A stretch of DNA of 64,000 bases from Thermoplasmata archaeon. GTDB lineage: Archaea > Thermoplasmatota > Thermoplasmata > RBG-16-68-12. The notes below the pieces were generated by a model, which did no database searches, was not told where the DNA came from, and was given only the letters and a program-made list of their open reading frames with translations. Positions within the stretch are counted from its first letter, which is position 1. Each line of letters opens with the position of its first letter. Positions 11,384 to 64,000 of the stretch are shown one piece after another. Position numbers and translations under genes: made by a program. The stretch covers positions 549 to 64,548 of the forward strand of contig DASWDU010000011.1 of assembly GCA_036395115.1 (NCBI GenBank). The letters are read 5' to 3'.

Positions 11384-12355
11384 ATGACGGGTTCGCACGA
11401 TTTTGGCGTGACCAAGGAACTCGCCCTCGTCGAGGAGCGGATCCGGGAGAGCATCGTCTCGGAGGAGCCTCTCCTCCATGACATCGCGGCCTACGTGATC
11501 GAGGCCGGGGGGAAGCGGATCCGGCCGATGGTCACCCTCCTCGCCTTCCAGGCGCTCGGCGGCACGGATGTCCGCCAGGCGATCGACCTCGCCGCCGCGC
11601 TCGAGATGATCCACAGCGCGACGCTCATCCACGACGACATCAACGACGGCGGCGAGATGCGCCGCGGCCGCCTCGCAGCCTACCGGAAGTTCGGCGTGCA
11701 GAACGCGCTCGTGACGGGGGACTTCCTCTTCGTCAAGGCGTTCGGCATCGGCGGCAAGTTCGACGCGGACATCGTCGAGCTCACGGCGCAGGCGTGCGCC
11801 GCGCTCGCGGAGGGCGAGATCCGGCAGCAGCGCCACGCGTACGATACGCACGTGAGCCGCGAGGAGTGCCTCGACATCATCCTCCGCAAGACCGCGCTTC
11901 CGATGATGGCGGGCGCGAAGATTGCCGGCCTGCTCGCGGGGGCGCGCCTCGAGGACGTCGACGCCGTCGGGGACTACGGCCTGAACCTCGGGATCGCCTT
12001 CCAGATCGTGGACGACATCCTCGACGTGGTCGGCGACGCCCTCCGGCTGGGGAAGCGGCCGGGGACGGACCTCCGGGAAGGGAACGTGACGCTCGTCGCG
12101 ATCCACGCCCTGAACGACGGCAGCCGGATTGACGTGCCGGCCCTCGCCCGGCTGATCCGCAAGCGGCGCAAGCAGGAGGCCGACGTGCAACGAGGGCTCG
12201 CCCTCCTCCGCGACTCCGGCGCGATCGAGAAGGCGCGGGCCGAGGCCCTGACGTACGCCGAGCTGGCGAAGAAGGCGCTCGATCCGATCCCGGACAGCGA
12301 GGCGAAGGCGAACATGTACCGCCTCGTGGAGTACGTGTTGTCGCGCGACGCCTGA
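11384..12355 (+). CDS. idsA: geranylgeranyl diphosphate synthase (short-chain polyprenyl synthetase)
   Basis: FARM motif LIHDDINDGGEMRRG and SARM motif FQIVDDILD. ATG at 11384 is preferred over the TTG at 11357 given the TATA position. Confidence 0.8.
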   Translation: MTGSHDFGVTKELALVEERIRESIVSEEPLLHDIAAYVIEAGGKRIRPMVTLLAFQALGGTDVRQAIDLAAALEMIHSATLIHDDINDGGEMRRGRLAAYRKFGVQNALVTGDFLFVKAFGIGGKFDADIVELTAQACAALAEGEIRQQRHAYDTHVSREECLDIILRKTALPMMAGAKIAGLLAGARLEDVDAVGDYGLNLGIAFQIVDDILDVVGDALRLGKRPGTDLREGNVTLVAIHALNDGSRIDVPALARLIRKRRKQEADVQRGLALLRDSGAIEKARAEALTYAELAKKALDPIPDSEAKANMYRLVEYVLSRDA

Positions 12356-12367
12356 GGGGGCGCCGCG

Positions 12368-13465
12368 ATGCCGACCCCCTACGACGTCCTCGTGGTCGGC
12401 GCGGGCCCCGCCGGGGGGACGGCGGCGCGGTACGCCGCGCGGCGCGGCCTCCGAGTCTTGCTCGTCGACAAGCGCAAGGAGATCGGCGTGCCGGTGCAGT
12501 GCGGCGAGTACGTCGCCCACAACGACGAGGTGCGGGCGATCTTCCCGACCGTCTCGGATCTGGAAGACCTCATGGAGATTCCGTACCGCGTCCGGGAGGT
12601 CGACACGCCGGTCATCCGGATCTGGTCGCCGGCGGGACGTCGCTACGACATCCCGTTTCGCGGCTTCACGGTCCGTCGGGACAAGATGGACCAGGGGATC
12701 GCCGACCAGGCGGCGGCGGAAGGCGCCGAGGTCGCGACCGAGACGACCGTCCTCCGCGTCCACGGCGAGGACGTCGAGACAAACCGCGGCAGCTTACGCG
12801 CGAAAGTGATCGTCGGCTCGGACGGTCCGCGCTCGACGGTCGCGCGGTCCGTCGGCCTCGAGTGGCCCGTGTCCGGACCCGCCATGAGCGCGACCGCAGA
12901 GGGCGACTTCGGCACGGCGACGGACCTGTACTTCGGGAACCTCGCGCCCGGCGGATACGCCTGGATCATCCCGAAAGCCGGCTGCGCGAACGTCGGCCTG
13001 GGCACGTGGGAGCATTTCCGCGGGAACCTCCGCGCGCTGTTCGACCGGTTCACCTTCGATCGAGGACTCGAGCCCGGCAAGGCGACGGGCGGGTTCGTGC
13101 CCGTCCAGGGACCGCCTCCGCGAACGGTCGCCGGCAACGCGATGCTCGTCGGCGACGCGGCGGGGATGGTCATGGCGACGAACGGCGGCGGGAACAACGT
13201 GGCGATGATCGCCGGCCGGATCGCGGGCCACACGGCGGCCGACCATCTCCTCGACGGCACGCCGATCGACGCATACGAAGAGCGCTGGCGTTCCGCCGTT
13301 GGCGGCCCGCTCGCGCAAGGCGTGCGGATCAAGCACCTCGCGGACCGCTTCTTCGGGAGCGATCGCCTCTTGGAGTTGTCGATGGTCCTCCTCGGTCGGC
13401 GGCGGATGGCGCGCGCGATCCGCTGCCAACCGCTGTTCGTGCGGGGCAGCGCCAGTCTCTTATAG
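12368..13465 (+). CDS. geranylgeranyl reductase family FAD-dependent oxidoreductase (digeranylgeranylglycerophospholipid reductase-like)
   Basis: N-terminal YDVLVVGAGPAGGTAARYAA Rossmann motif and GGR-family length (365 aa). Adjacent to idsA. Confidence 0.8.
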   Translation: MPTPYDVLVVGAGPAGGTAARYAARRGLRVLLVDKRKEIGVPVQCGEYVAHNDEVRAIFPTVSDLEDLMEIPYRVREVDTPVIRIWSPAGRRYDIPFRGFTVRRDKMDQGIADQAAAEGAEVATETTVLRVHGEDVETNRGSLRAKVIVGSDGPRSTVARSVGLEWPVSGPAMSATAEGDFGTATDLYFGNLAPGGYAWIIPKAGCANVGLGTWEHFRGNLRALFDRFTFDRGLEPGKATGGFVPVQGPPPRTVAGNAMLVGDAAGMVMATNGGGNNVAMIAGRIAGHTAADHLLDGTPIDAYEERWRSAVGGPLAQGVRIKHLADRFFGSDRLLELSMVLLGRRRMARAIRCQPLFVRGSASLL

Positions 13466-29173: not shown

Positions 29174-29255
29174 GCCCAGGTCGCCTAGCCCGGTAGGGCG
29201 GCGGTCTCGAAAACCGCTGGGTTACCCCTCGCAGGTTCAAATCCTGCCCTGGGCG
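29174..29255 (+). tRNA. tRNA-Ser (anticodon CGA), class II with a 13-nt variable arm
   Basis: Folded by hand. The 7-bp acceptor GCCCAGG/CCTGGGC, D-arm GG, anticodon stem GCGGT/ACCGC with loop CTCGAAA, a GGG-TTA-CCC variable hairpin, and a T-arm GCAGG-TTCAAAT-CCTGC all pair as expected; the discriminator is G. Confidence 0.85.
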
Positions 29256-29416
29256 CTTCACCCATAGACCTGGTGCCAATTTCCGTATTAGCGTTACGAC
29301 CTGCACTAAGTGGCGCCCCTGCCCCGCATACAGGCTAGGCCCCGCGCCTTCGTTTGCTTGTCTGATGGCAGGAAGCTTTAGGCGCGGGCTCCTCCATCGC
29401 GCTCCGCGTCATACAT

Positions 29417-29748: not shown

Positions 29749-29826
29749 GGTCGCCTAAGCCCGGTAGGGCGGCGGTCTCGAAAACCGCTGGGTTACCCCT
29801 CGCAGGTTCAAATCCTGCCCTGGGCG
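29749..29826 (+). repeat. direct repeat: 77/78-nt copy of the 3' portion of tRNA-Ser(CGA); matches 29179-29255 with one indel
   Basis: GGTCGCCTA(A)GCCCGGTAGGGCGGCGGTCTCGAAAACCGCTGGGTTACCCCTCGCAGGTTCAAATCCTGCCCTGGGCG. The copy lacks the 5' acceptor strand, so it is not a functional tRNA. This is the att-site-like signature of integration into a tRNA gene. Confidence 0.8.
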
Positions 29827-51886: not shown

Positions 51887-53272
51887 TCAGGCCAGCTCGA
51901 CGTACTTCCCGGGATTCATGATTCCCTTCGGATCGAACAACCGCTTGATCTCTTTCATGAGCCGGAGGCCTTCCTGGCCTCCATGGGCCTCCATCTGCTC
52001 TCGCATGAGCGATGCCTTCTGAACTCCGATCCCGTGTTCCCCGGTCACCGTGCCTCCGACTCGAATCGCGTATCGACAGAGCTCCTCAAGTGCCGCCGTT
52101 GCCGCGCGTTGACTCGCGGGATTCGCGCGGTCGAACAGGATCGTCGGATGGACGTTCCCGTCCCCGGCGTGGCCGAGCGTCGGGATGCGAAGGCCGAGCC
52201 GACGGGCGGTCTCCTTCACGAGACCGAGGTATTCGGCCAAGCGCTCGATCGGGACCGTGACATCTTCGATTTGCACGCCGGACGCGAGTTCCTTGACGGC
52301 CAGATACGCGCGGCTCCGTGCGGAATAGAGGCGGCCCGCCTGCTCTTCGTCCGCGGCGCGGGTGAAGCCTCGCGCCCCGTGTGTCCGGAAGACCTCCTCC
52401 GCCGACGGGACGAGAGGCGCTTCCAGATCCACCAGGAGTGTGGCTTCCGCCTCCTCGAGGTCCATGCGGAACGCGGCGTTCACGGCCCTCACGGTCTCCA
52501 AGTCCATGAACTCCATGAGGTTCGCCGAGATTCGCCTCCGGCGGAGCTCTTGGATCGCACGGCCCGCGGACGGCCAATCGCCGAATGTGACGAGCATGCG
52601 GACGATCGGGACCGTGGGAAGGGGCAGGATCTTCAGGTAGGCCTCCGTCACGATTCCCAATGTCCCCTCGCTGCCGATCATCAGGTGGACAAGGTCGTAC
52701 CCTGCTCGGTTCTTCGCGAGAGGCTCGCCGAACATGGCCGTGCGGCCGTTCGCCAACACGACGCGGAGGGCGAGCACCCAGTCCCGCATCGTCCCATACC
52801 GGACGCACCGCATGCCTCCGGACCCCTCGGCAATCGCCCCGCCGGCCGTGCAGACGAAGCTGCTCGCGGGATCGGGCGGAAAGAAGAAGCCGTCCTTCCG
52901 GAGCGCGTCGTTGAGGTCGTCGAGGACGACCCCGGCCTGGACGTGGACGTACCAGTTCACCGGATCGACCTTGAGGATCCGGTTCAACCGGGTCACGTCG
53001 AGCACGATTCCTCCTTTCAGGACGACGGCCCCCGTGAGGCTCGTCCCCGCCCCGCGTGCCACGATCGGAATGCCTCGGCGGGACGCCACCTTGACGATCC
53101 GCACGATTTCGTCTTCCGTCCCGGGACGGACGACGGCGCTCGGGACGGCTTCGAAGTCGGCCATGTCCCTTTGGTAGGCACCGAGGGCGGCCTCATCGGT
53201 CACGATGTGTTCCGTACCGACAATCGTCGACAACTCCTCGGCCAAACCTTTTCGGGCAGTTCGCGCGGGCAT
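51887..53272 (-). CDS. glcD: FAD-linked oxidase (glycolate oxidase subunit GlcD / D-lactate dehydrogenase-like)
   Basis: FAD_binding_4 N-domain (IVARGAGTSLTG), then an FAD-oxidase C-domain. 461 aa. Confidence 0.8.
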   Translation of the reverse strand: MPARTARKGLAEELSTIVGTEHIVTDEAALGAYQRDMADFEAVPSAVVRPGTEDEIVRIVKVASRRGIPIVARGAGTSLTGAVVLKGGIVLDVTRLNRILKVDPVNWYVHVQAGVVLDDLNDALRKDGFFFPPDPASSFVCTAGGAIAEGSGGMRCVRYGTMRDWVLALRVVLANGRTAMFGEPLAKNRAGYDLVHLMIGSEGTLGIVTEAYLKILPLPTVPIVRMLVTFGDWPSAGRAIQELRRRRISANLMEFMDLETVRAVNAAFRMDLEEAEATLLVDLEAPLVPSAEEVFRTHGARGFTRAADEEQAGRLYSARSRAYLAVKELASGVQIEDVTVPIERLAEYLGLVKETARRLGLRIPTLGHAGDGNVHPTILFDRANPASQRAATAALEELCRYAIRVGGTVTGEHGIGVQKASLMREQMEAHGGQEGLRLMKEIKRLFDPKGIMNPGKYVELA

Positions 53273-53530
53273 CGAACGCGAATGGCCTTGAAGTCGTGAA
53301 AAGCCTTGGTGTACGCTTGGCCCCGGTAGGACTCAGGCGGGCCCGCAGGCTCCATCGGTCGTCGTAGGGGCCTTGGCGGCACTCGCGCGGGACCGATAGG
53401 TTGAAAAATGCCCATGCCATGCCGGCGCACGGGAGGAGGTCGAACGGCCTCGAAGGGCGTTTGTCGCCCGGCTTGTGAACTCCGAGTGTCGGTCGCTTGC
53501 GCTCCCGCACCGTGAATCGGGGTTGGTTCT

Positions 53531-55075
53531 GTGGTCGAAACGGAAGTCCTCGAGGAGGGGCAGGAGACGATGCCCGGTACGGAAACCGTCCAGATCGGCG
53601 TGAGTCGACCGCCGCTCCCTGTGACGGACCTCCCGACGCCGGAGGAAGCGTTCAACATCAAGGGTCCGATCACGCCGGGGAAAGTCATCCGATACATCAT
53701 CGGTCCGAGCCTGATCGCGCTCGGGGTGTCGATCGGCAGCGGGGAATGGCTGATCGGCCCGTTTAACGTCGGGACGAAGGGGTTCGTCGGGATTCTCTGG
53801 GTCGTCCTCGTATCCGCCCTCCTGCAAGTCTTCTACAACGTCGAACTCGCGCGGTTCACGATCGCAACCGGGGAGTCGCCCGCCATCGCGTTCGGCCGTG
53901 TCCCGCCCGGCTTTTGGTTATGGATCCCATTGGCGGTGTTCCTCTACTGGCTGGCGTTCATCTGGGGCGGATGGGCCTCGGGTGCGGGCCAGAGCCTGTT
54001 CGTCCTGATTTACAACCGCTTGCCGGCGTCCTCGGAAGCGATCGTATCGAGATCGCTCGGTGCCGGCCTCCTGTTCCTCATTATGGGAATCGTACTGTTC
54101 GGTAAGAAAATCTCGCGCACGATGGAAATCGCGAACTGGATCATGGTCGCGTTCATCTTGTTCTCCGTCGTCAGCCTCGTCGTGCTCCTTGTCCCCGCGG
54201 AGTTCTCGGCGAGTGCGTTCGCCGCGATGGTGACGCCGGCCGCTCCTCCCTCCGGAACGACGGCCACGGACCTCGGCGCCCTCGCCGGGTTCACTGCCAC
54301 CGCGAGCGGGGTGAACTACTTCATCATCAGCTATTATCGAGACAAAGGGTACGGCATGGGGCACCGGGTCGGCTACATCGCCGCGCTCGTCGGAGGCAAG
54401 CAGGAGAAGCTGCTCGCCTCAGGGTTGACGTTCCCGGCCGATGCGAAGAACACGGCAATCTGGAAGCGCTGGTTCAAGTATCTCCTGATTGACCAGTGGG
54501 GCGTATTCTTCACGGGTGCAATCGTCGGCATGATGATGCCCGTGATCCTCGTCGGATACCTGAGCCAGCAATCGGGCGTTGCGCCGACCAGAGCAGGAAT
54601 GCCCGTGTACGCCGGGAGTCAGATCACCGCCCTCTACGGGCCGTTCTTGGGGAATTGGGCCTATATCGTCGGCTTCTTCATCCTCTTCAGCACGCAGATG
54701 GTCGTCTTCGAGGCCTTGGTTCGGCAGTTCGTCGACGGCGCCCACGCGATGAGTCCGAAGTTCCGGAAGTTCACGCGGGAGGACCCGCGCCGGTTCTACT
54801 ATCCCTTCATGCTCGGACTCGCCACCCTCATTTCAATCATCGTCATCTTCGGGGCGAACCCGCTCGATTTGGTGAACCAGTCTGCGAACTTTTCGAACCT
54901 GGCCTCCCTGATCGTCCCGTTCGCGGTGATTTACCTCAACCGTAGGCTGCCGGCGCCAGCGCGGATGAAGTGGTGGTCGTACGTGGTCCTCATCCTGAAC
55001 GTGATCTTCTTCGGGTTCTTCTTCATCAACTTCGCCTTCGAGAGGATCACGGGGAGCGCGCTGGTCAAGTTCTGA
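53531..55075 (+). CDS. polytopic membrane transporter (about 12 TM; Nramp/APC-like fold suspected, family not resolved)
   Basis: 514 aa, strongly hydrophobic with periodic TM helices. There is no canonical DPGN motif, so the Nramp assignment is tentative. Confidence 0.5.
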   Translation: MVETEVLEEGQETMPGTETVQIGVSRPPLPVTDLPTPEEAFNIKGPITPGKVIRYIIGPSLIALGVSIGSGEWLIGPFNVGTKGFVGILWVVLVSALLQVFYNVELARFTIATGESPAIAFGRVPPGFWLWIPLAVFLYWLAFIWGGWASGAGQSLFVLIYNRLPASSEAIVSRSLGAGLLFLIMGIVLFGKKISRTMEIANWIMVAFILFSVVSLVVLLVPAEFSASAFAAMVTPAAPPSGTTATDLGALAGFTATASGVNYFIISYYRDKGYGMGHRVGYIAALVGGKQEKLLASGLTFPADAKNTAIWKRWFKYLLIDQWGVFFTGAIVGMMMPVILVGYLSQQSGVAPTRAGMPVYAGSQITALYGPFLGNWAYIVGFFILFSTQMVVFEALVRQFVDGAHAMSPKFRKFTREDPRRFYYPFMLGLATLISIIVIFGANPLDLVNQSANFSNLASLIVPFAVIYLNRRLPAPARMKWWSYVVLILNVIFFGFFFINFAFERITGSALVKF

Positions 55076-55205
55076 GGACCTGATTGTCGACGGGAAGGCG
55101 TACGCGCCCTTCCCCCGGAGCCCTACGAGTCCGCAACAGGGCCCGGCCGAACGGAGTGTCCATGTAGGCCGAGTCCGCTTGTTCGGAACACGCGGAGGAT
55201 AGCGG

Positions 55206-56593
55206 ATGAGCGCCGGCAAGTCCAATGGTCGAAGTCGGGGATGGGGCCTGAACGTCGAGCTCCTCGCGACGAACGCGACGAACTCAGTCCTTCGCTCCTT
55301 GCGACGCGATGCCTTAGAGATCCTCCGACACGCCCTCGATGACGTCGATCCGGAACAGGCCGTCGCCACCGTGATTGAGCGGCGCGGCGATTACTTGTAC
55401 GTCCTTGGTAAACAGGTCCCCATCGTCGCGAGACCAATTTATGTGTTAGCGATCGGAAAAGCGTCAACCCGGATGGCAAAGGGCGTCCTCCGCGTCCTCC
55501 GACCCGAGTCGGGCCTCCTCGTTGCAGAGAAGGCCCCGTCTCCCGCTTTGGAAGGCTTCCAAACCGTCCTCGCGTCCCACCCTCTGCCCGACGAAGGGAG
55601 CTTGAGGGCGGGCGAGGCCGCCCTGCGGATCGCAGACGGACTTCGGCCCGGCGATGTACTCATCGTCCTTCTGTCAGGTGGGGCGAGCGCGATGTTCGAA
55701 GCATCTCGTGTGCCGCTGGGCGACCTCCGCGACGCAAATACTCAGATGCTGCGGAGCGGCTTGGACGTTCGGGACCTGAACGAGGTGCGAAAAGGTCTCT
55801 CCGATGTCAAGGGTGGACGGCTCGCCGAGCGGGCGGCGGGTCGTGGCGCCACCGTTGTCGGGTTGATCCTCTCCGATATCGTCGGGAGTCCAATCGAGGA
55901 TATCGGGTCCGGGCCCACGGCCCCCGGTTCGTCCCGTGGCGAACGGGCGAAGGAGATCCTCGTTCGGCACGGGCTATGGGATCGGATGCCCGTCTCCGTG
56001 CGGCACAGCCTAGCCGAGGCGGCGAGCGCGACGAGACCCCGACTGTCGGCGCCGACGGCTGTTCACAATTTCATCGTCGCAGACAACGTGCGCGCGTGTG
56101 AAGCCGCACGACGGGAAGCGGAGCGCCGCGGGTATGCCGCGCACATCTTGACGACGTCGTTGGAGGGCGAGGCTCGCCAGGTGGGCCCCGTCCTGGCCGC
56201 CGATGCGATTCGGTGGAAGCCACGCGCTCGACGGATAGCAGTCGTCGCCGGGGGCGAGACGACCGTCACGGTCCGTGGCAGGGGCCTGGGTGGGCGCAAC
56301 CAAGAGCTCGCTCTCGCGGCCGCCCGAATTCTGGAGGGCCGGTCTGCCGTCCTCCTCTCCTGCGGGACCGACGGGGCCGACGGGAACACGGACGCGGCCG
56401 GCGCGATCGCGGATGGCGAGACGATGTCGAGAGCGCGGTCCCTGCGGCTCGATCCGAAAAAGTTCCTCGAGGCGAACGACTCATTCGCATTCTTCCAGGC
56501 TCTCGGGGACCTGATCGTCACGGGTCCGACCGGAACGAACGTCGCGGACATCCAGATCGTCCTCGAGGACCGATCACGCCCACTTCCTGGCGG

Positions 56594-56606
<13 letters not shown>
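55206..56606 (+). CDS. glycerate 2-kinase (MOFRL family)
   Basis: DUF4147 N-domain and MOFRL C-domain conservation (VLAIGKAS...LLSGGASA...[19 protein letters not shown]...CGTDGADG). Confidence 0.75.
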
Positions 56607-58222
<1,616 letters not shown>

Positions 58223-58622: not shown

Positions 58623-60848
58623 TTGAGAAGGACGTTCTCTCTCGTCGCGTGCATCGGACTGATGGCGGTCTTGACGGTATCGAGCTCGGACGCGCGCGCC
58701 TCGTCGGGCACCACCGATGGTCCCGCCATCAGCCCCTCGTCAACGGGGCTCGGCATCTTGATCCTCGACGCCACCGTCCTCGGCGGCAATACCAGCGTCG
58801 AGGCGGAGCAAGCCCAGGACCTCGGCTTTGCGGTGACCGTTGTGGACGACGCGACGTGGAGTATCATGAGCGAAGACGACTTCGCCGCCTACGATGCGAT
58901 CGTCCTCGGCGACCGCGTATGTGCAAGTTCGAGCCGCCTTGCCGCGGCCGAGGCCAACGTGGGCGTCTGGTCCGCCGCCGTCACCGGCAACGTCGTCCTC
59001 GTGGGCACCGACCCGGTGTTCCACATCCGCAATTATCCCTTCACACCTGCAGGCACCCAACTCACCCGGAACGCAATCCGGTACGCCGCGAGCCAAGCCG
59101 GTCACACCGGGCTCTACCTCTCGTTGAGTTGCTATTATGCGAACGCCCCCCCGCTCACGCCGGTGCCCGTGCTCGATGGGTTCGGCAACTTCGCCGTCGA
59201 GGGCCAAGGGAACTGTCCCAACACCGTGGAAATCGTGGATCCCACTAATCCCGTCTTTGACGGGTTGAGCAACGACAGCTTATCGAACTGGTCGTGCTCG
59301 GTCCACGAGGCGTTCGACGCCTGGCCGCTGGACTTCCAGGTCCTGGCCAGGGCGCCCGAGATCAATGACAGCCCGTACATCCTCGGCCGGGGGGCCGCCG
59401 CGCCGACGCCGTCCTGCGGGGGTCCGACGATCCCGCTTCCCGGGTCCGGGTTCTGGGTCGGGTTCCGCTGGAGCTTCTCGTACTTCGTCTCCCTCAACGA
59501 CGGCCTCGTCGTCCGGGACGTCACGCTCGCCACGCGCTACATGGCCGTGCAGATGAGCATGCCGTACTACTACGTGCAGACGAGTGCCTTCGGCCTCACC
59601 CGTGGGGAGCTCAAGCCGGACAGCAACGACACGACCGCCCGCAGCCGGCTGGTCGGATTCGTGTCGACCGCGAACGACGAACACATCACCGTGAAGGCCA
59701 CGTACGCTGTGGACCGCATCCCGCCCGGGTCTGATAGCTGCCTGATCATCGTGCAGACGTACGAGTTTCACAAGGAACTGGGCAATGGCGGCTGCGAGCC
59801 GACCAACTCGATACCGGCGCCACTGAAAAACCCTTCCTTGCCCTGCAATCTTTGGAAGTTCCAAGTGAGCTACGGGTTCGCCGGTGCCAACGGGGAGACG
59901 CTCACCTCGATCAACGTGCCCCTACGGATGCACTTCCGCGACGAGAACCGAATCGGCAACAACGCCTCCACGTACCAGGATAGGGACTCGTTCATCCCTC
60001 CGACGCCCATCGAGAAAAGCCAGTCGATTCTCGAAGAGTCGAGCTTCCGCGCGATCGTCCAAGGCGACAAGGGCACTTGGGACAACTATCACCAGACCTA
60101 CCGAGCCAAAGTGACGGAACCGACGGGACTCCCCGTCGTAGGGCCCGGCTGCCCCGAGTGCATCCACATCCACTGGCGGTGGGGATACCCCGCAGGCTTC
60201 TTCAACGCCTCGTACGGCGGCCACTGCGAACTCTGGGCGTCCGACTGCACCGCTGGCGCCCCGATGATCCCCAAGGATTCCAACCAAGATGTGGAGTTCG
60301 CGGTCGTGCGCTACCATCCGGGCGAGGAAGATCCGCCGGACTTCCACCCCTTGATGAATCGCGAGACCTTGCGGAACCAAGACATGGTCTTCTGGTACTC
60401 TGCGACGGGCTACCACGACCACGACACGTTCTTCCAGCACGGCGGCTTCTTCTCCACTCTGAGCCGCTTCGCTGACTTGGCCTTGACAGGCTCCGCGTAC
60501 CCCGGCCCGGTGACGGCCGGGGACGTGTTGACGTACACCTTCACCATCACAAACAACGGCCCGACTAAAGCCACCCGTGTCGTCCTCACAGACGTGTGGT
60601 CGGTCGGGGTGGCGTCCTTCGAGCCGACCGGGTCGAGTGACAGTTGCAAGGTCGCCCCTGGGGCGCCAGAGGTCGACTGCGACCTGGGCAGCATCCCGAG
60701 CGGGCAGTCGCGCACCATCACCGTCGTTCTCCACACGGCCGTCGCTGCACAAATCAGGAACGACGCATCCGTCGAGTCGCCCGGGGAAGTGGATCAGAAC
60801 CCAAACAACAACCAAATCACCCTGTTGACCCAGATCGTGGCCCCCTGA
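58623..60848 (+). CDS. large secreted protein with an N-terminal signal peptide and a C-terminal DUF11/CARDB-like domain
   Basis: TTG start with a strong GGAGGG Shine-Dalgarno. Signal peptide MRRTFSLVACIGLMAVLTVSSSDARA. The C-terminus (VLTYTFTITNNGPTKATRVVLTDV...NNNQITLLTQIVAP) follows the DUF11 pattern. Confidence 0.6.
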   Translation: MRRTFSLVACIGLMAVLTVSSSDARASSGTTDGPAISPSSTGLGILILDATVLGGNTSVEAEQAQDLGFAVTVVDDATWSIMSEDDFAAYDAIVLGDRVCASSSRLAAAEANVGVWSAAVTGNVVLVGTDPVFHIRNYPFTPAGTQLTRNAIRYAASQAGHTGLYLSLSCYYANAPPLTPVPVLDGFGNFAVEGQGNCPNTVEIVDPTNPVFDGLSNDSLSNWSCSVHEAFDAWPLDFQVLARAPEINDSPYILGRGAAAPTPSCGGPTIPLPGSGFWVGFRWSFSYFVSLNDGLVVRDVTLATRYMAVQMSMPYYYVQTSAFGLTRGELKPDSNDTTARSRLVGFVSTANDEHITVKATYAVDRIPPGSDSCLIIVQTYEFHKELGNGGCEPTNSIPAPLKNPSLPCNLWKFQVSYGFAGANGETLTSINVPLRMHFRDENRIGNNASTYQDRDSFIPPTPIEKSQSILEESSFRAIVQGDKGTWDNYHQTYRAKVTEPTGLPVVGPGCPECIHIHWRWGYPAGFFNASYGGHCELWASDCTAGAPMIPKDSNQDVEFAVVRYHPGEEDPPDFHPLMNRETLRNQDMVFWYSATGYHDHDTFFQHGGFFSTLSRFADLALTGSAYPGPVTAGDVLTYTFTITNNGPTKATRVVLTDVWSVGVASFEPTGSSDSCKVAPGAPEVDCDLGSIPSGQSRTITVVLHTAVAAQIRNDASVESPGEVDQNPNNNQITLLTQIVAP

Positions 60849-60967
60849 CGGGAGTGAGTGGCTTGGCGCAGGCTCGGGACGTAGCCAGTAGAGTCAGCTG
60901 CCGCGTCCGATAACATCTGATAACTATCCAGGAAGGTTTATTCCAAATCGCTCCGTGGGCGCGCGCC

Positions 60968-61519
60968 GTGGCGTCCCGTAAGCGCGGCCTGATCGCCGTC
61001 GGTCTCGTCCTGCTCCTCATCGGCGGCTACACGCTGTACAGCTACAACCCCGCCCACACGTACCAGTCCACGTTCAACGTCCTCCCGCTGAGGTACTTCA
61101 AAATCCTTGCGAACCTCCGTGATCAGACCCGGATCACTGGTACGTTCCAGGAGACGGCTGGACGAGCCGTGGCCTTCATGGTGATGAGCAGCGCCCAGTT
61201 CGCCGCCTTCCAGGCCGCGAACACGACGACGAATGTGTATTCCCTTCCCGAGGCGGCTACCGGCAACATGGATTTCACCTCCACGGTCCCCGACGCCTAT
61301 TACCTGGTCTTCCGGCACGGGACCGGCCAATCGAACACGACCCAAACGGTCACCTTCCAGCGGACGTACACCTCCGTGGACGAAGTCGCCATCCTGTCGG
61401 GCATCGCCCTCCTCGTAATCGGGGCCGTCGAAATCTATTGGGGCTTCCGTCCGACCGGCGGCCGGGCGCCCTCGCCGCAAGCGGATCCGGGCGACGTCCC
61501 GCGGCCTCCGTGGCCCTGA
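60968..61519 (+). CDS. hypothetical bitopic membrane protein
   Basis: GTG start. N-terminal TM helix, a ~120-aa Thr/Ser-rich ectodomain, then a C-terminal TM helix. 183 aa. Confidence 0.45.
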   Translation: MASRKRGLIAVGLVLLLIGGYTLYSYNPAHTYQSTFNVLPLRYFKILANLRDQTRITGTFQETAGRAVAFMVMSSAQFAAFQAANTTTNVYSLPEAATGNMDFTSTVPDAYYLVFRHGTGQSNTTQTVTFQRTYTSVDEVAILSGIALLVIGAVEIYWGFRPTGGRAPSPQADPGDVPRPPWP

Positions 61520-61528
61520 GGGACCCTC

Positions 61529-63265
61529 GTGAGGCGCGCGAGGCGATCGAGCCGGCGTCCCGCCAGCCGTCGCGCGTCCCTTCGGCGGCATCTCCCCTTC
61601 CTCGCCTTCCTCGTGGCGTTCACCGGGTATTGCGCGTTCCTCCAGTTCTACCTCACGGACGCATTGAACCGCCTCTACCTGGTCCGCACCTTCTTCCAGG
61701 TCGCCATCGCCGCCGCAGTGATCGCGTCGATGCGGAACGTTATCGGTGGGAGGACCCTCGGGATGTTCGGCTCCGTCATCATCGCCCTCGCGTTCCTCGC
61801 GACGGGGCTCTTCCTGGGCCTCCTGATCCTCGGCTTGATCCTGGGCGTCGTCCTGCTCGTGCGCGGCGCGCTCATCCGGGAGCGCGTGCAAGAAGCCCAC
61901 CGCGTCGCAATCCTCGTCACGATCGTGGGTGTCACGATCTCGTCGATTGCAATCATCGGTCTCGAATGGCAACAGCACGACCTGTTCTTCGCCGTCCTCT
62001 TCCCGGTGCTCATCAGCGCGTGGTTCGCGGAACGGTACGTGGAGCGCGTCACCCGCGTCGGTTGGGACGAGCCGACGAAGGCCCTGATCTGGACGGTCAT
62101 CGGGATTGCCCTGTCGTTCTTCGTGATCACGCAAGACGCCCTTGTGAACTTCGTCATGCTGACGCCGCTGACCTGGCCCCTCCTCGTCGTGATCAACTGG
62201 TTCCTTGGGACGCAGATCCGCTTTCGCCTCTTGGAACGCTATCGGTTCGGCGGCGTCTCGCGGTACGCATTAGCGGACGGACCGATCCGCGGGGATTTTG
62301 GCGACGATGTGCTCACGATGAATGTCCGGAATCGGGAGTTCGTGGCGAAGTACAATCCGCCCGAGACGATGGCAAGGCTCGGGAAGGATGAGGCGAAGCG
62401 CATCCTGATCCCAATGGGCGTGCCGATGGCGAAGACGTACGGGATCCTGCGGACGCGCGAGGACCTGGGGGCGCTTCGATCGTGGATGGAGAGTCACGAT
62501 CAATTCGTCCTCAAGCCGGCCTCGGGGCACGGCGGCGAAGGCATCGTGCTCGTCCGCGGGAAAGGCGCCGATGCCTTCAACACGAGTCTAGGACCCCTGA
62601 CGGGGCGCCAGATTGAGGCCCACGCCCTTGCGATCCTCGCCGGGGAGTACGGCGGGGACCACCGGGACGCGGCCGTGCTCGAGGAACTGCTCGAACGGCA
62701 CGAGGCTCTGCGCGCGCTCTCCCCGATTGGGCTCGCGGACGTTCGCGTGATCTCCTTCCGCGGGTATCCGGTCATGGCGATGATGCGCATTCCGACCCAA
62801 GCTTCCGGAGGCAAAGCGAACCTCCACCTTGGCGCGTTAGCCGCCGGCGTGAGGCTCTCGACGGGCACGATCGTCCACTGCGTCTGGCGGGGGGCACCGC
62901 AGCCGAATCATCCCGACACGGGCACGCCCCTCCTCGGCCAAACCGTTCCGTTCTGGGACGAGATCCTCGAACTCGCCGCGGAAGCCCAGCGCCTCTCCGG
63001 CCTCGGCTTCGCGGGCGTGGACATCTCCATCGATGCGCGACAAGGCCCCGTCGTCATGGAAGTGAATCGACGGCCGGGATTGGAGATCCAGGTCGCGAAC
63101 GCCGCGGGTCTCTTACGGCGGCTGCGGCTGATCGAGGGACTCCCGGACGGCCACCTCCCGGTGGAGGAGCGGCTCCAGGTCGTTCGGGAATTCGACGCGG
63201 GGCATTGGGGCGTCAGCCCTTTGGCGAGCCGTCGTTCGGGAACTCCGGTGGACGAGCCGGCATGA
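61529..63265 (+). CDS. ATP-grasp ligase (alpha-L-glutamate ligase / RimK-like) fused to an N-terminal 7-TM domain
   Basis: The N-terminal ~260 aa are polytopic. The C-terminal ~300 aa carry ATP-grasp motifs (FVLKPASGHGGEGIVLV; VMEVNRRPGLEIQ). Confidence 0.65.
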   Translation: MRRARRSSRRPASRRASLRRHLPFLAFLVAFTGYCAFLQFYLTDALNRLYLVRTFFQVAIAAAVIASMRNVIGGRTLGMFGSVIIALAFLATGLFLGLLILGLILGVVLLVRGALIRERVQEAHRVAILVTIVGVTISSIAIIGLEWQQHDLFFAVLFPVLISAWFAERYVERVTRVGWDEPTKALIWTVIGIALSFFVITQDALVNFVMLTPLTWPLLVVINWFLGTQIRFRLLERYRFGGVSRYALADGPIRGDFGDDVLTMNVRNREFVAKYNPPETMARLGKDEAKRILIPMGVPMAKTYGILRTREDLGALRSWMESHDQFVLKPASGHGGEGIVLVRGKGADAFNTSLGPLTGRQIEAHALAILAGEYGGDHRDAAVLEELLERHEALRALSPIGLADVRVISFRGYPVMAMMRIPTQASGGKANLHLGALAAGVRLSTGTIVHCVWRGAPQPNHPDTGTPLLGQTVPFWDEILELAAEAQRLSGLGFAGVDISIDARQGPVVMEVNRRPGLEIQVANAAGLLRRLRLIEGLPDGHLPVEERLQVVREFDAGHWGVSPLASRRSGTPVDEPA

Positions 63266-63287
63266 GCTTTGCACCGAGGTTCCGAAC

Positions 63288-64000
63288 CTAGAGGTACCCC
63301 AGCGCCCGCTTCCCGTCGATCACTCCATAGCCGTACCACGGGTCATGAGGAATTACTTGGCCCGGTGCCGCGACGGCCGACCGCGCCAGAGCCCATTTGA
63401 GTGCGAGGACGTTCGCGGTGGAGCCGGCGGGGCGGAGCTCGGGGTGGGCTTGAAGGAGGAGCGCGACGATCCCCGCCGCGACCGCCGTCGAGGGGCTCGT
63501 TCCGGTCAAGGTTACGTAGTGGGCGCCCGGTGCGGTCGAGATGATTTGGACCCCGGGCGCTGTCACCTCGGGCTTCAGGTTCGGATCCGTCCGATTCCCG
63601 ACGAAACTCGCAGACGAAAACGACGCGACGCGTCCCGACGCGTCGACTGCGCCGACGGCGAGGGCCAGAGGGACGTTCGCCGGGATTTCCACATCGCCGT
63701 CGTCGAACGGCCCGCCATCGTTCCCGGCCGCGGCCACGACGATCACGCCGCGATCGAGGGCCCATTGGGCCGCGACCGAGACCTCGGTCCCGACGAAGAG
63801 CGGAGCGGAGGAGCCCAAGGAGACCGAGATGATGTCGGCGCCGCGGGTCCCGTCTCCGAAGGGGTCCACACAAAACCGGATGCCGTCGGCAACGACACGG
63901 GAACTCCCGAAACCGGTGTTGTTGATTGCCTTCGCCACAAGGAGAGCGGCATCCGGTGCAATGCCTCTCAGGCTGCCGTTCGCGGCGATGAGTCCGGCCA
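63288..64000 (-). CDS. S8-family subtilisin-like serine peptidase, C-terminal part; the gene continues past the window end
   Basis: GTSPSTAVAAG catalytic Ser motif and an AAAGNDG Asn/oxyanion region. The ORF is open at the window edge. Confidence 0.8.
   Translation of the reverse strand, partial: AGLIAANGSLRGIAPDAALLVAKAINNTGFGSSRVVADGIRFCVDPFGDGTRGADIISVSLGSSAPLFVGTEVSVAAQWALDRGVIVVAAAGNDGGPFDDGDVEIPANVPLALAVGAVDASGRVASFSSASFVGNRTDPNLKPEVTAPGVQIISTAPGAHYVTLTGTSPSTAVAAGIVALLLQAHPELRPAGSTANVLALKWALARSAVAAPGQVIPHDPWYGYGVIDGKRALGYL

Follow-up and report, generated by a model that had tools for sequence, protein, structure and literature searches.

The rloABC operon, described in P. aeruginosa and present in other Gammaproteobacteria, encodes a secreted retropepsin (RloA), an inactive transglutaminase joined to a seven-transmembrane (7TM) domain (RloB), and an ATP-grasp ligase (RloC) (PMC12239564). 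The substrate channel of the RloA proteases is basic, and in vitro these enzymes cleave runs of eight or more glutamates. Loss of all three RloA proteins causes hypo-osmotic lethality together with morphology, biofilm and antibiotic phenotypes, which are suppressed by deletion of rloB or rloC (PMC12239564). This rescue fits a product of the ligase and membrane protein that needs processing by RloA. Mutation of rloB in Shewanella leads to an excess of membrane vesicles (PMC12096838). Here, we analyzed a stretch of 64,000 nucleotides (nt), hereafter the window, from contig DASWDU010000011.1 (assembly GCA_036395115.1) of a Thermoplasmata archaeon. Its final part encodes a 7TM_transglut membrane domain fused to an ATP-grasp ligase, a 183-residue membrane protein directly upstream, and an S8 subtilase downstream. 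A preliminary description had likened this region to bacterial three-gene ligase/7TM-transglutaminase/protease systems, a class that now carries the name rloABC and has genetic support (PMC12239564). Our analysis indicates that the region is probably an archaeal variant of the RloABC type, combining membrane domain, ATP-grasp ligase and extracytoplasmic protease. It is regarded as a variant and not a member because the transglutaminase ectodomain and the retropepsin are absent and the ligase misses the cut-off of the family model TIGR02291. Sequence comparison points to a non-orthologous protease displacement, in which an S8 subtilase stands in place of the retropepsin RloA.

The membrane-bound ligase and its subtilase partner

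The fusion protein comprises a 7TM_transglut domain (PF14402) at residues 50–241 (61.8 bits; Pfam cut-off 25) and an ATPgrasp_ST domain (PF14397) at residues 267–536 (200.5 bits; cut-off 31.4). Among the NCBIfam models, TIGR02291 matches the ligase best by far (253.4 bits, E = 2.5e-75), although this score lies below the 314.2-bit cut-off of what is a hypothetical equivalog. The thresholds of the RimK family model TIGR00768 (39.2 versus 143.4 bits) and of the MptN/RimK equivalog models NF040720 (35.5 versus 350 bits) and NF007764 (22.8 versus 331 bits) are missed, and the RimK/MptN models match only the C-terminal ~45 residues of the ligase. Searches of solved structures returned only weak RimK matches (PDB RimK, E ~1e-3), and RloC of Alcanivorax and the ligase domain share 40% identity across 303 residues. 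Furthermore, Lys329, Asp498, Glu511 and Asn513 in the LKP, AGVD and MEVN motifs are invariant in alignments of 19 and 53 sequences. By these sequence criteria, the ATP-grasp domain is predicted to be a catalytically intact amidoligase of the RloC/TIGR02291 family and not RimK- or LysX-like. The earlier placement with the alpha-L-glutamate-ligase-like enzymes is borne out by this contrast of 253 versus 39 bits and by the resemblance to Alcanivorax RloC. In the membrane part, the RloB model NF052267 matches the 7TM portion only, and phmmer comparison of this domain with bacterial RloB gave E-values of 1e-7 to 1e-15. Neither the fusion protein nor its neighbours contain a transglutaminase ectodomain (PF14400).

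The hydropathy profile reveals eight hydrophobic segments between residues 22 and 226, and the AlphaFold2 (AF2) model of residues 1–262 (pLDDT 74.5) places helices at residues 14–41, 52–72, 79–92, 94–118, 122–146, 150–177, 180–201 and 203–227. The N-terminus is Arg-rich, with ~20 residues preceding the first helix. The combined number of Lys and Arg residues per loop is 10, 1, 3, 3 and 6 on the predicted inside and 1, 0, 0 and 0 on the outside. The hydropathy, the positive-inside rule and the model together predict an eight-helix protein with both termini inside the cell. Since the charge counts of alternate loops and the same eight AF2 helices concur, the N-terminus and the ATP-grasp domain are predicted to be cytoplasmic, a placement that fits the requirement of an ATP-dependent enzyme. 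The fusion of membrane domain and ligase noted previously is confirmed by the Pfam domains of a single open reading frame (ORF), with eight transmembrane (TM) helices instead of seven. The conserved residues of the membrane domain are charged in the inside loops (Arg112, Glu118, His124-Arg125 and Glu168-Arg176) and polar on the outside (His150 and Gln202-Asp203).

The S8 gene runs past the end of the window. In full, it encodes 375 residues, equivalent to window positions 63288–64415 and to positions 11760–12887 of locus L001, which is the window's own parent contig. The part within the window covers the C-terminal ~237 residues; of the active-site residues it includes the oxyanion Asn and the Ser, whereas the Asp, the His and the membrane anchor are encoded past base 64000. 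The full-length protein matches PF00082 at 157 bits (Pfam), and the equivalents of Asp32, His64, Ser221 and Asn155 of subtilisin BPN' are invariant in all 13 partner S8s. The N-terminal part has a cytoplasmic PPDFYRGRNRA motif and a basic stretch, and one TM anchor at residues ~35–63 leads to the catalytic domain. Because the basic stretch and a single TM helix precede it, the catalytic domain is predicted to lie outside the membrane, and its residues suggest that it is catalytically intact.

To place this pair in a wider context, one genome per species was scanned, and the window proteins were compared by phmmer with all ORFs in the resulting loci. The adjacency count was limited to 13 archaeal-type loci with downstream flank in the sequence. 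In 12 of these, an S8 orthologue adjoins or is fused to the fusion gene (43–79% identity; E-values of 1e-84 to 1e-181). The two genes are convergent in L001, L004–L006 and L008, co-directional and often overlapping in L007, L010–L012 and L014–L016, and fused in frame in L009. The identities of ligase and S8 to the window proteins fall in parallel across the loci, at 78/77, 79/75, 63/63, 61/60, 55/55, 48/51, 46/49, 43/48, 43/47 and 48/50% (ligase/S8). The hosts of the S8-type loci are Thermoplasmata, Methanomassiliicoccales, Bathyarchaeia and one 4-kb contig binned as bacterial (ANGP1). This last contig (L007, "Bacillati bacterium ANGP1") carries a 63% identical module in identical gene order; it reflects either mis-binning or recent transfer, and is too short to tell which. 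The clade of L010–L016, of Methanomassiliicoccales type, has a conserved ~115-residue protein with three TM helices downstream of the S8 gene, as well as a ~315-residue cytoplasmic trypsin-like/NAL1-like peptidase after it (for example, L010 12994–14212), which would add a second protease on the inside.

A protein search yielded ~120 close homologues, all with 7TM_transglut and ATPgrasp_ST domains. At least seven clusters of 911–989 residues carry a C-terminal Peptidase_S8 domain (P0104, P0106, P0108, P0112, P0113, P0114 and P0116), and the four that were read (P0104, P0106, P0112 and P0116) correspond to both window genes end to end. These chains run in the order ligase, linker, (L/I)P(P/R)(D/E)FYxG(R/K)xRA motif, TM helix and S8 domain, with Glu-rich linkers in some of them only. 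The retention of the TM anchor in the fused chains is what an arrangement with the ligase inside and the protease outside predicts. The pairing of ligase and protease far exceeds chance. The conserved adjacency, the three orientations, the Rosetta-stone fusions and the parallel divergence identify the S8 peptidase as a genuine partner, the genomic coupling of which to the ligase is obligate, in agreement with its reading as such in the preliminary description. An ordinary secreted subtilase that happens to lie beside an ATP-grasp membrane protein would be conceivable, given that S8 peptidases are abundant in archaeal genomes and that the two genes in the window are convergent and not on one transcript. 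Such a coincidence would, however, have to account for adjacency maintained from 43% to 79% identity in three orientations, for the parallel divergence, and for a specific S8 subfamily with motifs of its own. The single-chain fusions refute it, and we assign it a negligible likelihood.

Accessory protein and bacterial relatives

The 183-residue protein, previously described as a small bitopic membrane protein, is indeed small and membrane-bound; it is not strictly bitopic, having two TM helices around an ectodomain. The hydropathy profile places the helices at residues 6–26 and 135–160, separated by a ~110-residue domain (ectodomain residues ~27–134) and followed by a short cytoplasmic tail ending in PPWP. 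No Pfam or NCBIfam family matches the protein at E ≤ 0.01, and its own family is small (65 clusters). The AF2 model (pLDDT 84) shows a β-sandwich between the two TM helices. The best Foldseek matches are the GOLD domains of p24/TMED proteins, with E-values of 1.6e-7 to 1e-5, TMt of 0.79–0.83 and root-mean-square deviations of 2.2–3.3 Å, including 7rrm_A (E = 1.6e-7, TMt 0.79) and 5azw_B (TMt 0.83). Protease-associated jelly-roll domains (the Tk-SP C-domain and the collagenase PPC domain) rank lower and score similarly, so that the GOLD assignment is generic. The protein shares with p24/TMED GOLD domains the β-sandwich fold and a membrane-tethered position facing the lumen or the outside, but differs from them in having two flanking TM helices and no sequence-family match.

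The gene immediately preceding that of the fusion protein encodes a homologue in L004, L005, L007, L008, L088, L089 and L090, and one is present upstream in every locus of the window's clade with enough flank, including L088 and L089, in which the S8 domain is fused. At least nine homologues are consistent with co-location on the contigs of listed fusion homologues. The cytoplasmic tail is disordered, and its PPPWP ending is conserved in close relatives and not in more distant linked homologues. As a universal component of the system, the protein was rejected, being absent from the L010–L016 clade and having a distant homologue that is unlinked. Its conservation as a third component is limited to the window's clade.

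The combination of an ATP-grasp enzyme, a protease and a membrane protein is, in general terms, also the parts list of a graspetide cluster. A ribosomally synthesized peptide (RiPP) pathway was therefore considered, in which a precursor peptide is cyclised by the ATP-grasp enzyme, loses its leader to the S8 peptidase and is exported by the membrane domain. S8 peptidases process leaders in some such pathways, and the window S8 gives a weak PatA/PatG-type match of 63 bits, against a cut-off of 421 bits. The ligase, however, scores with RloC/TIGR02291 and reaches only 18 bits with grasp_GAK (cut-off 300 bits). Furthermore, no small precursor is encoded by a conserved ORF; the one small gene that is conserved specifies the folded two-TM protein, and the S8 peptidase is anchored outside while the ligase is inside. 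This explanation is highly improbable.

The same scan returned 63 bacterial rloBC loci, mostly from Gammaproteobacteria, in which two adjacent genes encode a ~510-residue Transglut_i_TM plus 7TM_transglut protein and a ~320-residue ATPgrasp_ST protein. A PF05618 retropepsin was found by single-sequence phmmer in 28 of the 63 and usually precedes the ATPgrasp_ST gene, whereas an S8 peptidase of the present subfamily occurs within 10 kb in none. Conversely, no archaeal-type locus encodes a PF05618 retropepsin or an RloB-type transglutaminase. The archaeal module thus resembles RloABC in its homologous ATP-grasp enzyme (40% identity to RloC), in its homologous 7TM_transglut membrane domain, in the layout of inside ligase, membrane part and outside protease, and in the coupling of ligase and membrane part, through adjacent genes in bacteria and one chain in the archaeon. 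It differs in the protease, which is a membrane-anchored S8 subtilase, sometimes fused to the ligase, instead of a retropepsin; in the lack of a transglutaminase ectodomain and the fusion of membrane and ligase parts; in the additional partner of TM–GOLD-like–TM organization in the window's clade; in the acidic S1 region of the S8 peptidase compared with the basic channel of RloA; and in a host without outer membrane or peptidoglycan. A more distant parallel is the RimK/RimB pair, in which polyglutamylation of S6 is antagonized by a retropepsin. It likewise combines an ATP-grasp ligase with an antagonistic peptidase and shares the C-terminal Mg/ATP motif, but RimK is a soluble enzyme of the cytoplasm whose protein substrate is known, while the window ligase is membrane-embedded and paired with an outside protease.

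An exhaustive search of 1.84 billion representative proteins, with architectures assigned by Pfam on a sample, yielded 331 proteins at E ≤ 1e-30. The sampled architectures include 7TM-ATPgrasp proteins of 540–650 residues, many proteins of 800–880 residues in which the match begins at about residue 330, giants of the order prenyltransferase-toroid-7TM-ATPgrasp, and fusions of ATPgrasp_ST with a MATCAP-type carboxypeptidase. Consistent with this, the earlier notion of an archaeal version of the system holds for the host and for the S8-type loci but not for the 7TM-ATP-grasp fusion itself, as transglutaminase-7TM-ATP-grasp fusions of 800–880 residues are common among the representative hits. In Arenimonas daejeonensis (L078 9026–11635), rloB and rloC form a single ORF for a transglutaminase-7TM-ATPgrasp protein of 869 residues, and in sister Arenimonas genomes the two genes are apart by a stop codon and 3 nt. 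The length and match position of this fusion are shared by ~20 representative clusters of 800–880 residues, and the membrane–ligase fusion has thus apparently arisen repeatedly.

The more distant 7TM-ATPgrasp fusions of L086 and L087 (37–40% identity) lie in operons of the order prenyltransferase-like/fusion/transglutaminase-core/retropepsin (L086) and prenyltransferase-like/fusion/transglutaminase-core with no other protease (L087). The transglutaminase-core genes (L086 6375–7798 and L087 7685–8866) have a counterpart in the Thermoplasmata locus L013 (SMAG_U8293; 11599–12723), where it overlaps the end of the fusion gene. All three proteins adopt a TM–ectodomain–TM topology and keep the His and Asp, while at the position of the catalytic Cys, L087 has Cys, L086 has Ser and L013 has Ala. 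This pattern is a hint that the role of protease partner can fall to an active transglutaminase-fold peptidase itself. Systems of this kind, including L078 and the proteins P0304 and P0310, share with the archaeal module the 7TM-to-ATP-grasp junction and, in L078/L086/L087-type systems, extracytoplasmic partners with TM–ectodomain–TM topology. They differ in their transglutaminase-fold and/or retropepsin partners, often together with a prenyltransferase-like toroid, and none has an S8 peptidase. The intermediate architectures of L086, L087, L013 and the MATCAP fusion indicate that a peptidase partner recurs while its fold changes. Across these comparisons, the membrane-coupled ligase core is conserved and is accompanied by a recurrent peptidase-fold partner, the fold of which has been exchanged several times.

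Several further observations concern the family. The protein preceding the 7TM-ATP-grasp gene in L086 (1833–4751) and L087 (3725–6004) is a large prenyltransferase/terpene-cyclase-like α-α-toroid, and the same toroid is fused to the N-terminus of 7TM-ATPgrasp in P0302 and other proteins of ~1350–1430 residues. In P0343 (795 residues), ATPgrasp_ST and a MATCAP-type metallocarboxypeptidase (PF08014) share one soluble chain, an arrangement that recalls the tubulin tyrosination cycle. Assembly GCA_030157145.1 contains three paralogous systems of different type (L087, L088 and L090), namely transglutaminase, small protein with triple fusion, and small protein with fusion and convergent S8. Provided that this bin is clean, several versions of the system operate side by side in one organism. 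The standalone ATPgrasp_ST genes of other Thermoplasmata (L042, L066, L074 and L083) were set aside as a different subfamily that lacks 7TM and S8 partners.

Genomic surroundings of the module

The ORF list of the window contains all four genes that had been grouped into a cassette, and their positions are compiled in the table together with the genes upstream. Beyond the S8 gene, L001 encodes Spt4, Rpo7 and the ribosomal proteins S24e and S27e, and these neighbours identify the host as an archaeon. In addition, a protein identical to the 578-residue fusion is recorded from a Thermoplasmata archaeon metagenome-assembled genome.

Features of the module and its surroundings (coordinates are window positions)
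Feature	Coordinates	Strand	Remarks
GlcD-like FAD oxidase gene	51887–53272	-	upstream cluster
Polytopic membrane protein gene	53531–55075	+	501–514 residues; no family match; between FAD oxidase and glycerate kinase
DUF4147/MOFRL glycerate kinase gene	55206–56606	+	upstream cluster
Malate synthase gene	56594–58222	-	upstream cluster
DUF11 protein gene	58623–60848	+	741 residues, secreted; neighbour, not part of the module
TATA-like TTTATT	60937–60942	+	~28 nt before the GTG start of the 183-residue protein gene; read by eye
Accessory membrane protein gene	60968–61519	+	183 residues; TM, GOLD-like β-sandwich, TM
Fusion protein gene, whole ORF	61529–63265	+	578 residues
7TM_transglut membrane domain of fusion	61529–62263	+	PF14402; eight predicted helices
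ATP-grasp amidoligase domain of fusion	62309–63148	+	residues ~261–540; PF14397, TIGR02291; predicted cytoplasmic
S8 subtilase gene, 3' part	63288–64000	-	residues ~139–375; PF00082; cut by the window end

A spacer of 119 nt separates the accessory gene from the DUF11 gene upstream, and the fusion gene starts 10 nt past the stop codon of the accessory gene, preceded by GAGGGA. The TATA-like element is a possible archaeal promoter of a leaderless transcript of these two genes, separate from the DUF11 gene. A scan for sigma-70 promoters and terminators is uninformative for an archaeal host. Rfam gave no match in the module region, and the PADLOC defence-system models gave a generic subtilase match only.

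The secreted protein upstream of the module belongs to the DUF11/CLIPPER repeat proteins, with a DUF11 domain (PF01345) at residues 618–731 (69.6 bits against a cut-off of 24.6, E = 3.7e-19; Pfam), and its hydrophobic N-terminus (residues 3–24) is consistent with a signal peptide. A module of ~230 residues (38–266) shares 40–50% identity with the N-terminal regions of numerous multidomain proteins secreted by bacteria, and a second unnamed module of ~355 residues (261–617) with the motifs CPECIHIHWRWG and YHDHDTFFQHGG is common to ~14 proteins only; neither corresponds to a Pfam family. Proteins elsewhere with the first module carry Big_1, DUF4215, HYR, GDSL-lipase or PKD domains.

The preliminary description had made this protein part of a four-gene cassette, as substrate or product carrier of the ligase and protease. 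Adjacency on the same strand in the window, along with large secreted surface proteins near L009, L004 and L008, would be in line with such a role. However, the protein lies upstream of the ligase only in contigs of the same species, phmmer against the ORFs of the scanned loci found no homologue at any other ligase locus, and the surface proteins elsewhere are not mutually homologous. About 14 full-length homologues exist, and they sit in unrelated bacterial contexts; on the longer contigs, P0193 and P0190 have LysR, RND-efflux and two-component genes as neighbours, and neither a ligase nor an S8 gene is nearby. The spacer with its TATA-like element also speaks against a common unit, and the 741-residue protein has neither an acidic tail nor a C-terminal anchor. 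No acidic acceptor tail, a feature that had been suggested for the neighbouring proteins, occurs in any of the four sequences. The non-conservation largely refutes the cassette, which we consider very improbable; the candidate was dropped, and the DUF11 protein is a neighbour and not a component. What is conserved around the ligase is thus narrower than first described: the ligase–S8 core in 12 of 13 loci and the accessory gene in the window's clade, without the DUF11 gene. For this core, both the grouping apart from RimK/LysX and the conserved neighbourhood are found.

Large secreted or anchored surface proteins, mutually non-homologous, adjoin several archaeal modules. In L009 (3532–5007), an Ig-repeat He_PIG/cadherin-like protein overlaps the fusion start by 4 nt, and secreted proteins lie near the modules of L004 (3757–6843, 1028 residues) and L008 (5054–7501, 815 residues). 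This proximity may come down to the general abundance of such genes, or to a loose thematic link. Directly upstream of the DUF11 gene and the module, window positions 51887–58222 hold a cluster of the glycolate/glyoxylate type. Farther away, at 29753–29826 (+), Rfam reports a second tRNA (32.6 bits) that ARAGORN does not, ~500 nt past a tRNA-Ser(CGA) at 29174–29256.

Proposed function and implications

By analogy with the bacterial genetics, the ligase, working at the inner face of the membrane, would consume ATP to make or lengthen a peptide-like product with amide linkages. This product would be passed or presented by the polytopic domain to the outer face, where the S8 peptidase would trim, release or turn it over. 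The ligase would thus be an inside "writer" and the protease an outside "eraser", and the two would act as a pair on the cell envelope. The GOLD-like ectodomain may bind the product or the protease, possibly substituting for the absent inactive-transglutaminase ectodomain. Since its placement and topology parallel those of the separate transglutaminase partners, the 183-residue protein may take over their outside-binding role.

The substrate preference of the S8 peptidase bears on this proposal. In HMMER and MAFFT alignments to subtilisin, 12 of the 13 partner S8s have Asp at BPN' position 156, while position 166 is Glu in the window's clade and Gly in the other archaeal clade. In engineered subtilisin, a preference for Lys or Arg at P1 results from acidic residues at these two positions, and the acidic pattern also aligns with the furin S1 residues Asp301 and Asp306. 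The sequence DDGDV at positions 161–165 is invariant in the partner S8s; alternatively, this loop could be a Ca2+ site. The acidic S1 region argues against a simple polyglutamate substrate.

These residues also enter an alternative of regulated proteolysis or protein tagging, in which a membrane protein is modified by the ligase on its cytoplasmic tail or on a loop, for example on the C-terminal tail of the 183-residue protein or of the S8 peptidase itself, and the S8 peptidase cuts a protein substrate at basic residues outside. The module would then serve for signalling across the membrane or for maturation. The acidic S1 region, by analogy with subtilisin engineering and with kexin and furin, predicts a basic P1 residue instead of polyglutamate. 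The 183-residue protein has a disordered cytoplasmic tail, with its PPPWP end conserved in close relatives, and the clade A S8s have a conserved cytoplasmic juxtamembrane motif. RimK-type relatives, moreover, modify a protein C-terminus. On the other hand, the tail motif is lost in more distant linked homologues, the second archaeal clade (L010–L016) has no 183-residue protein, neither an acidic nor an otherwise obvious acceptor sequence is present, and the bacterial study found no genome-encoded substrate (PMC12239564). We consider this alternative unlikely.

The RloABC-type reading, which we favour, also faces several difficulties. The envelope phenotypes and the epistasis between protease and ligase come from genetics in P. 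aeruginosa only (PMC12239564). Given the acidic S1 region against the basic channel of RloA, the archaeal S8 peptidase may not cut polyglutamate, the two proteases may share no substrate, and the product or the cleavage point may differ from the bacterial proposal. Export is an assumption, since the membrane domain resembles no solved transporter; a fold search of the PDB found no match at E ≤ 1e-3. The 183-residue protein is confined to the window's clade and absent from L010–L016, and one distant homologue, which has a zinc-ribbon tail, lies apart from any ligase gene. The accessory and ligase genes probably share a transcript, a reading for which co-transcription and promoter were judged by eye only. 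Finally, L013 is the sole Thermoplasmata locus without an S8 peptidase, having a Cys-to-Ala transglutaminase partner and no protease nearby.

The 7TM-ATP-grasp fusion is already known, being visible in domain databases and in NCBI protein naming. The displacement by S8, the single-chain ligase–anchor–protease proteins, the GOLD-like partner and the archaeal distribution were not found in the literature searched, which did not include the 2009 comparative-genomics paper. That literature contained no mention of PF14402, PF14397 or TIGR02291, and the S8 association was possibly noted in 2009. The bacterial three-gene system is said, where later papers cite it, to have been predicted by Iyer et al. 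in that year.

In these systems, the protease can be swapped for one of unrelated fold and fused to the ligase via a membrane anchor. The covalent fusion, with the anchor in between, fixes the topology with the ligase inside and the protease outside, and swap and fusion together argue for ligase, membrane domain and protease acting on one object as a physical complex. Its presence in archaea means that the system depends on neither peptidoglycan nor an outer membrane. The module represents a natural experiment that constrains topology and partnership, and not a new principle; its archaeal forms, encoded as a single chain or by two genes, offer compact constructs for reconstituting the biochemistry. 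A further-reaching and rather doubtful reading takes it as a self-contained trans-membrane machine, occurring as a single polypeptide in some Bathyarchaeia and related archaea, that makes and processes a new peptide-like envelope polymer or tag of archaea. The product or its carrier would be cationic, and not polyglutamate, because the S1 region of the subtilase is furin-like acidic. If this were true, bacterial Rlo would be one branch of a much wider family, the chemistry of which varies with the protease partner.

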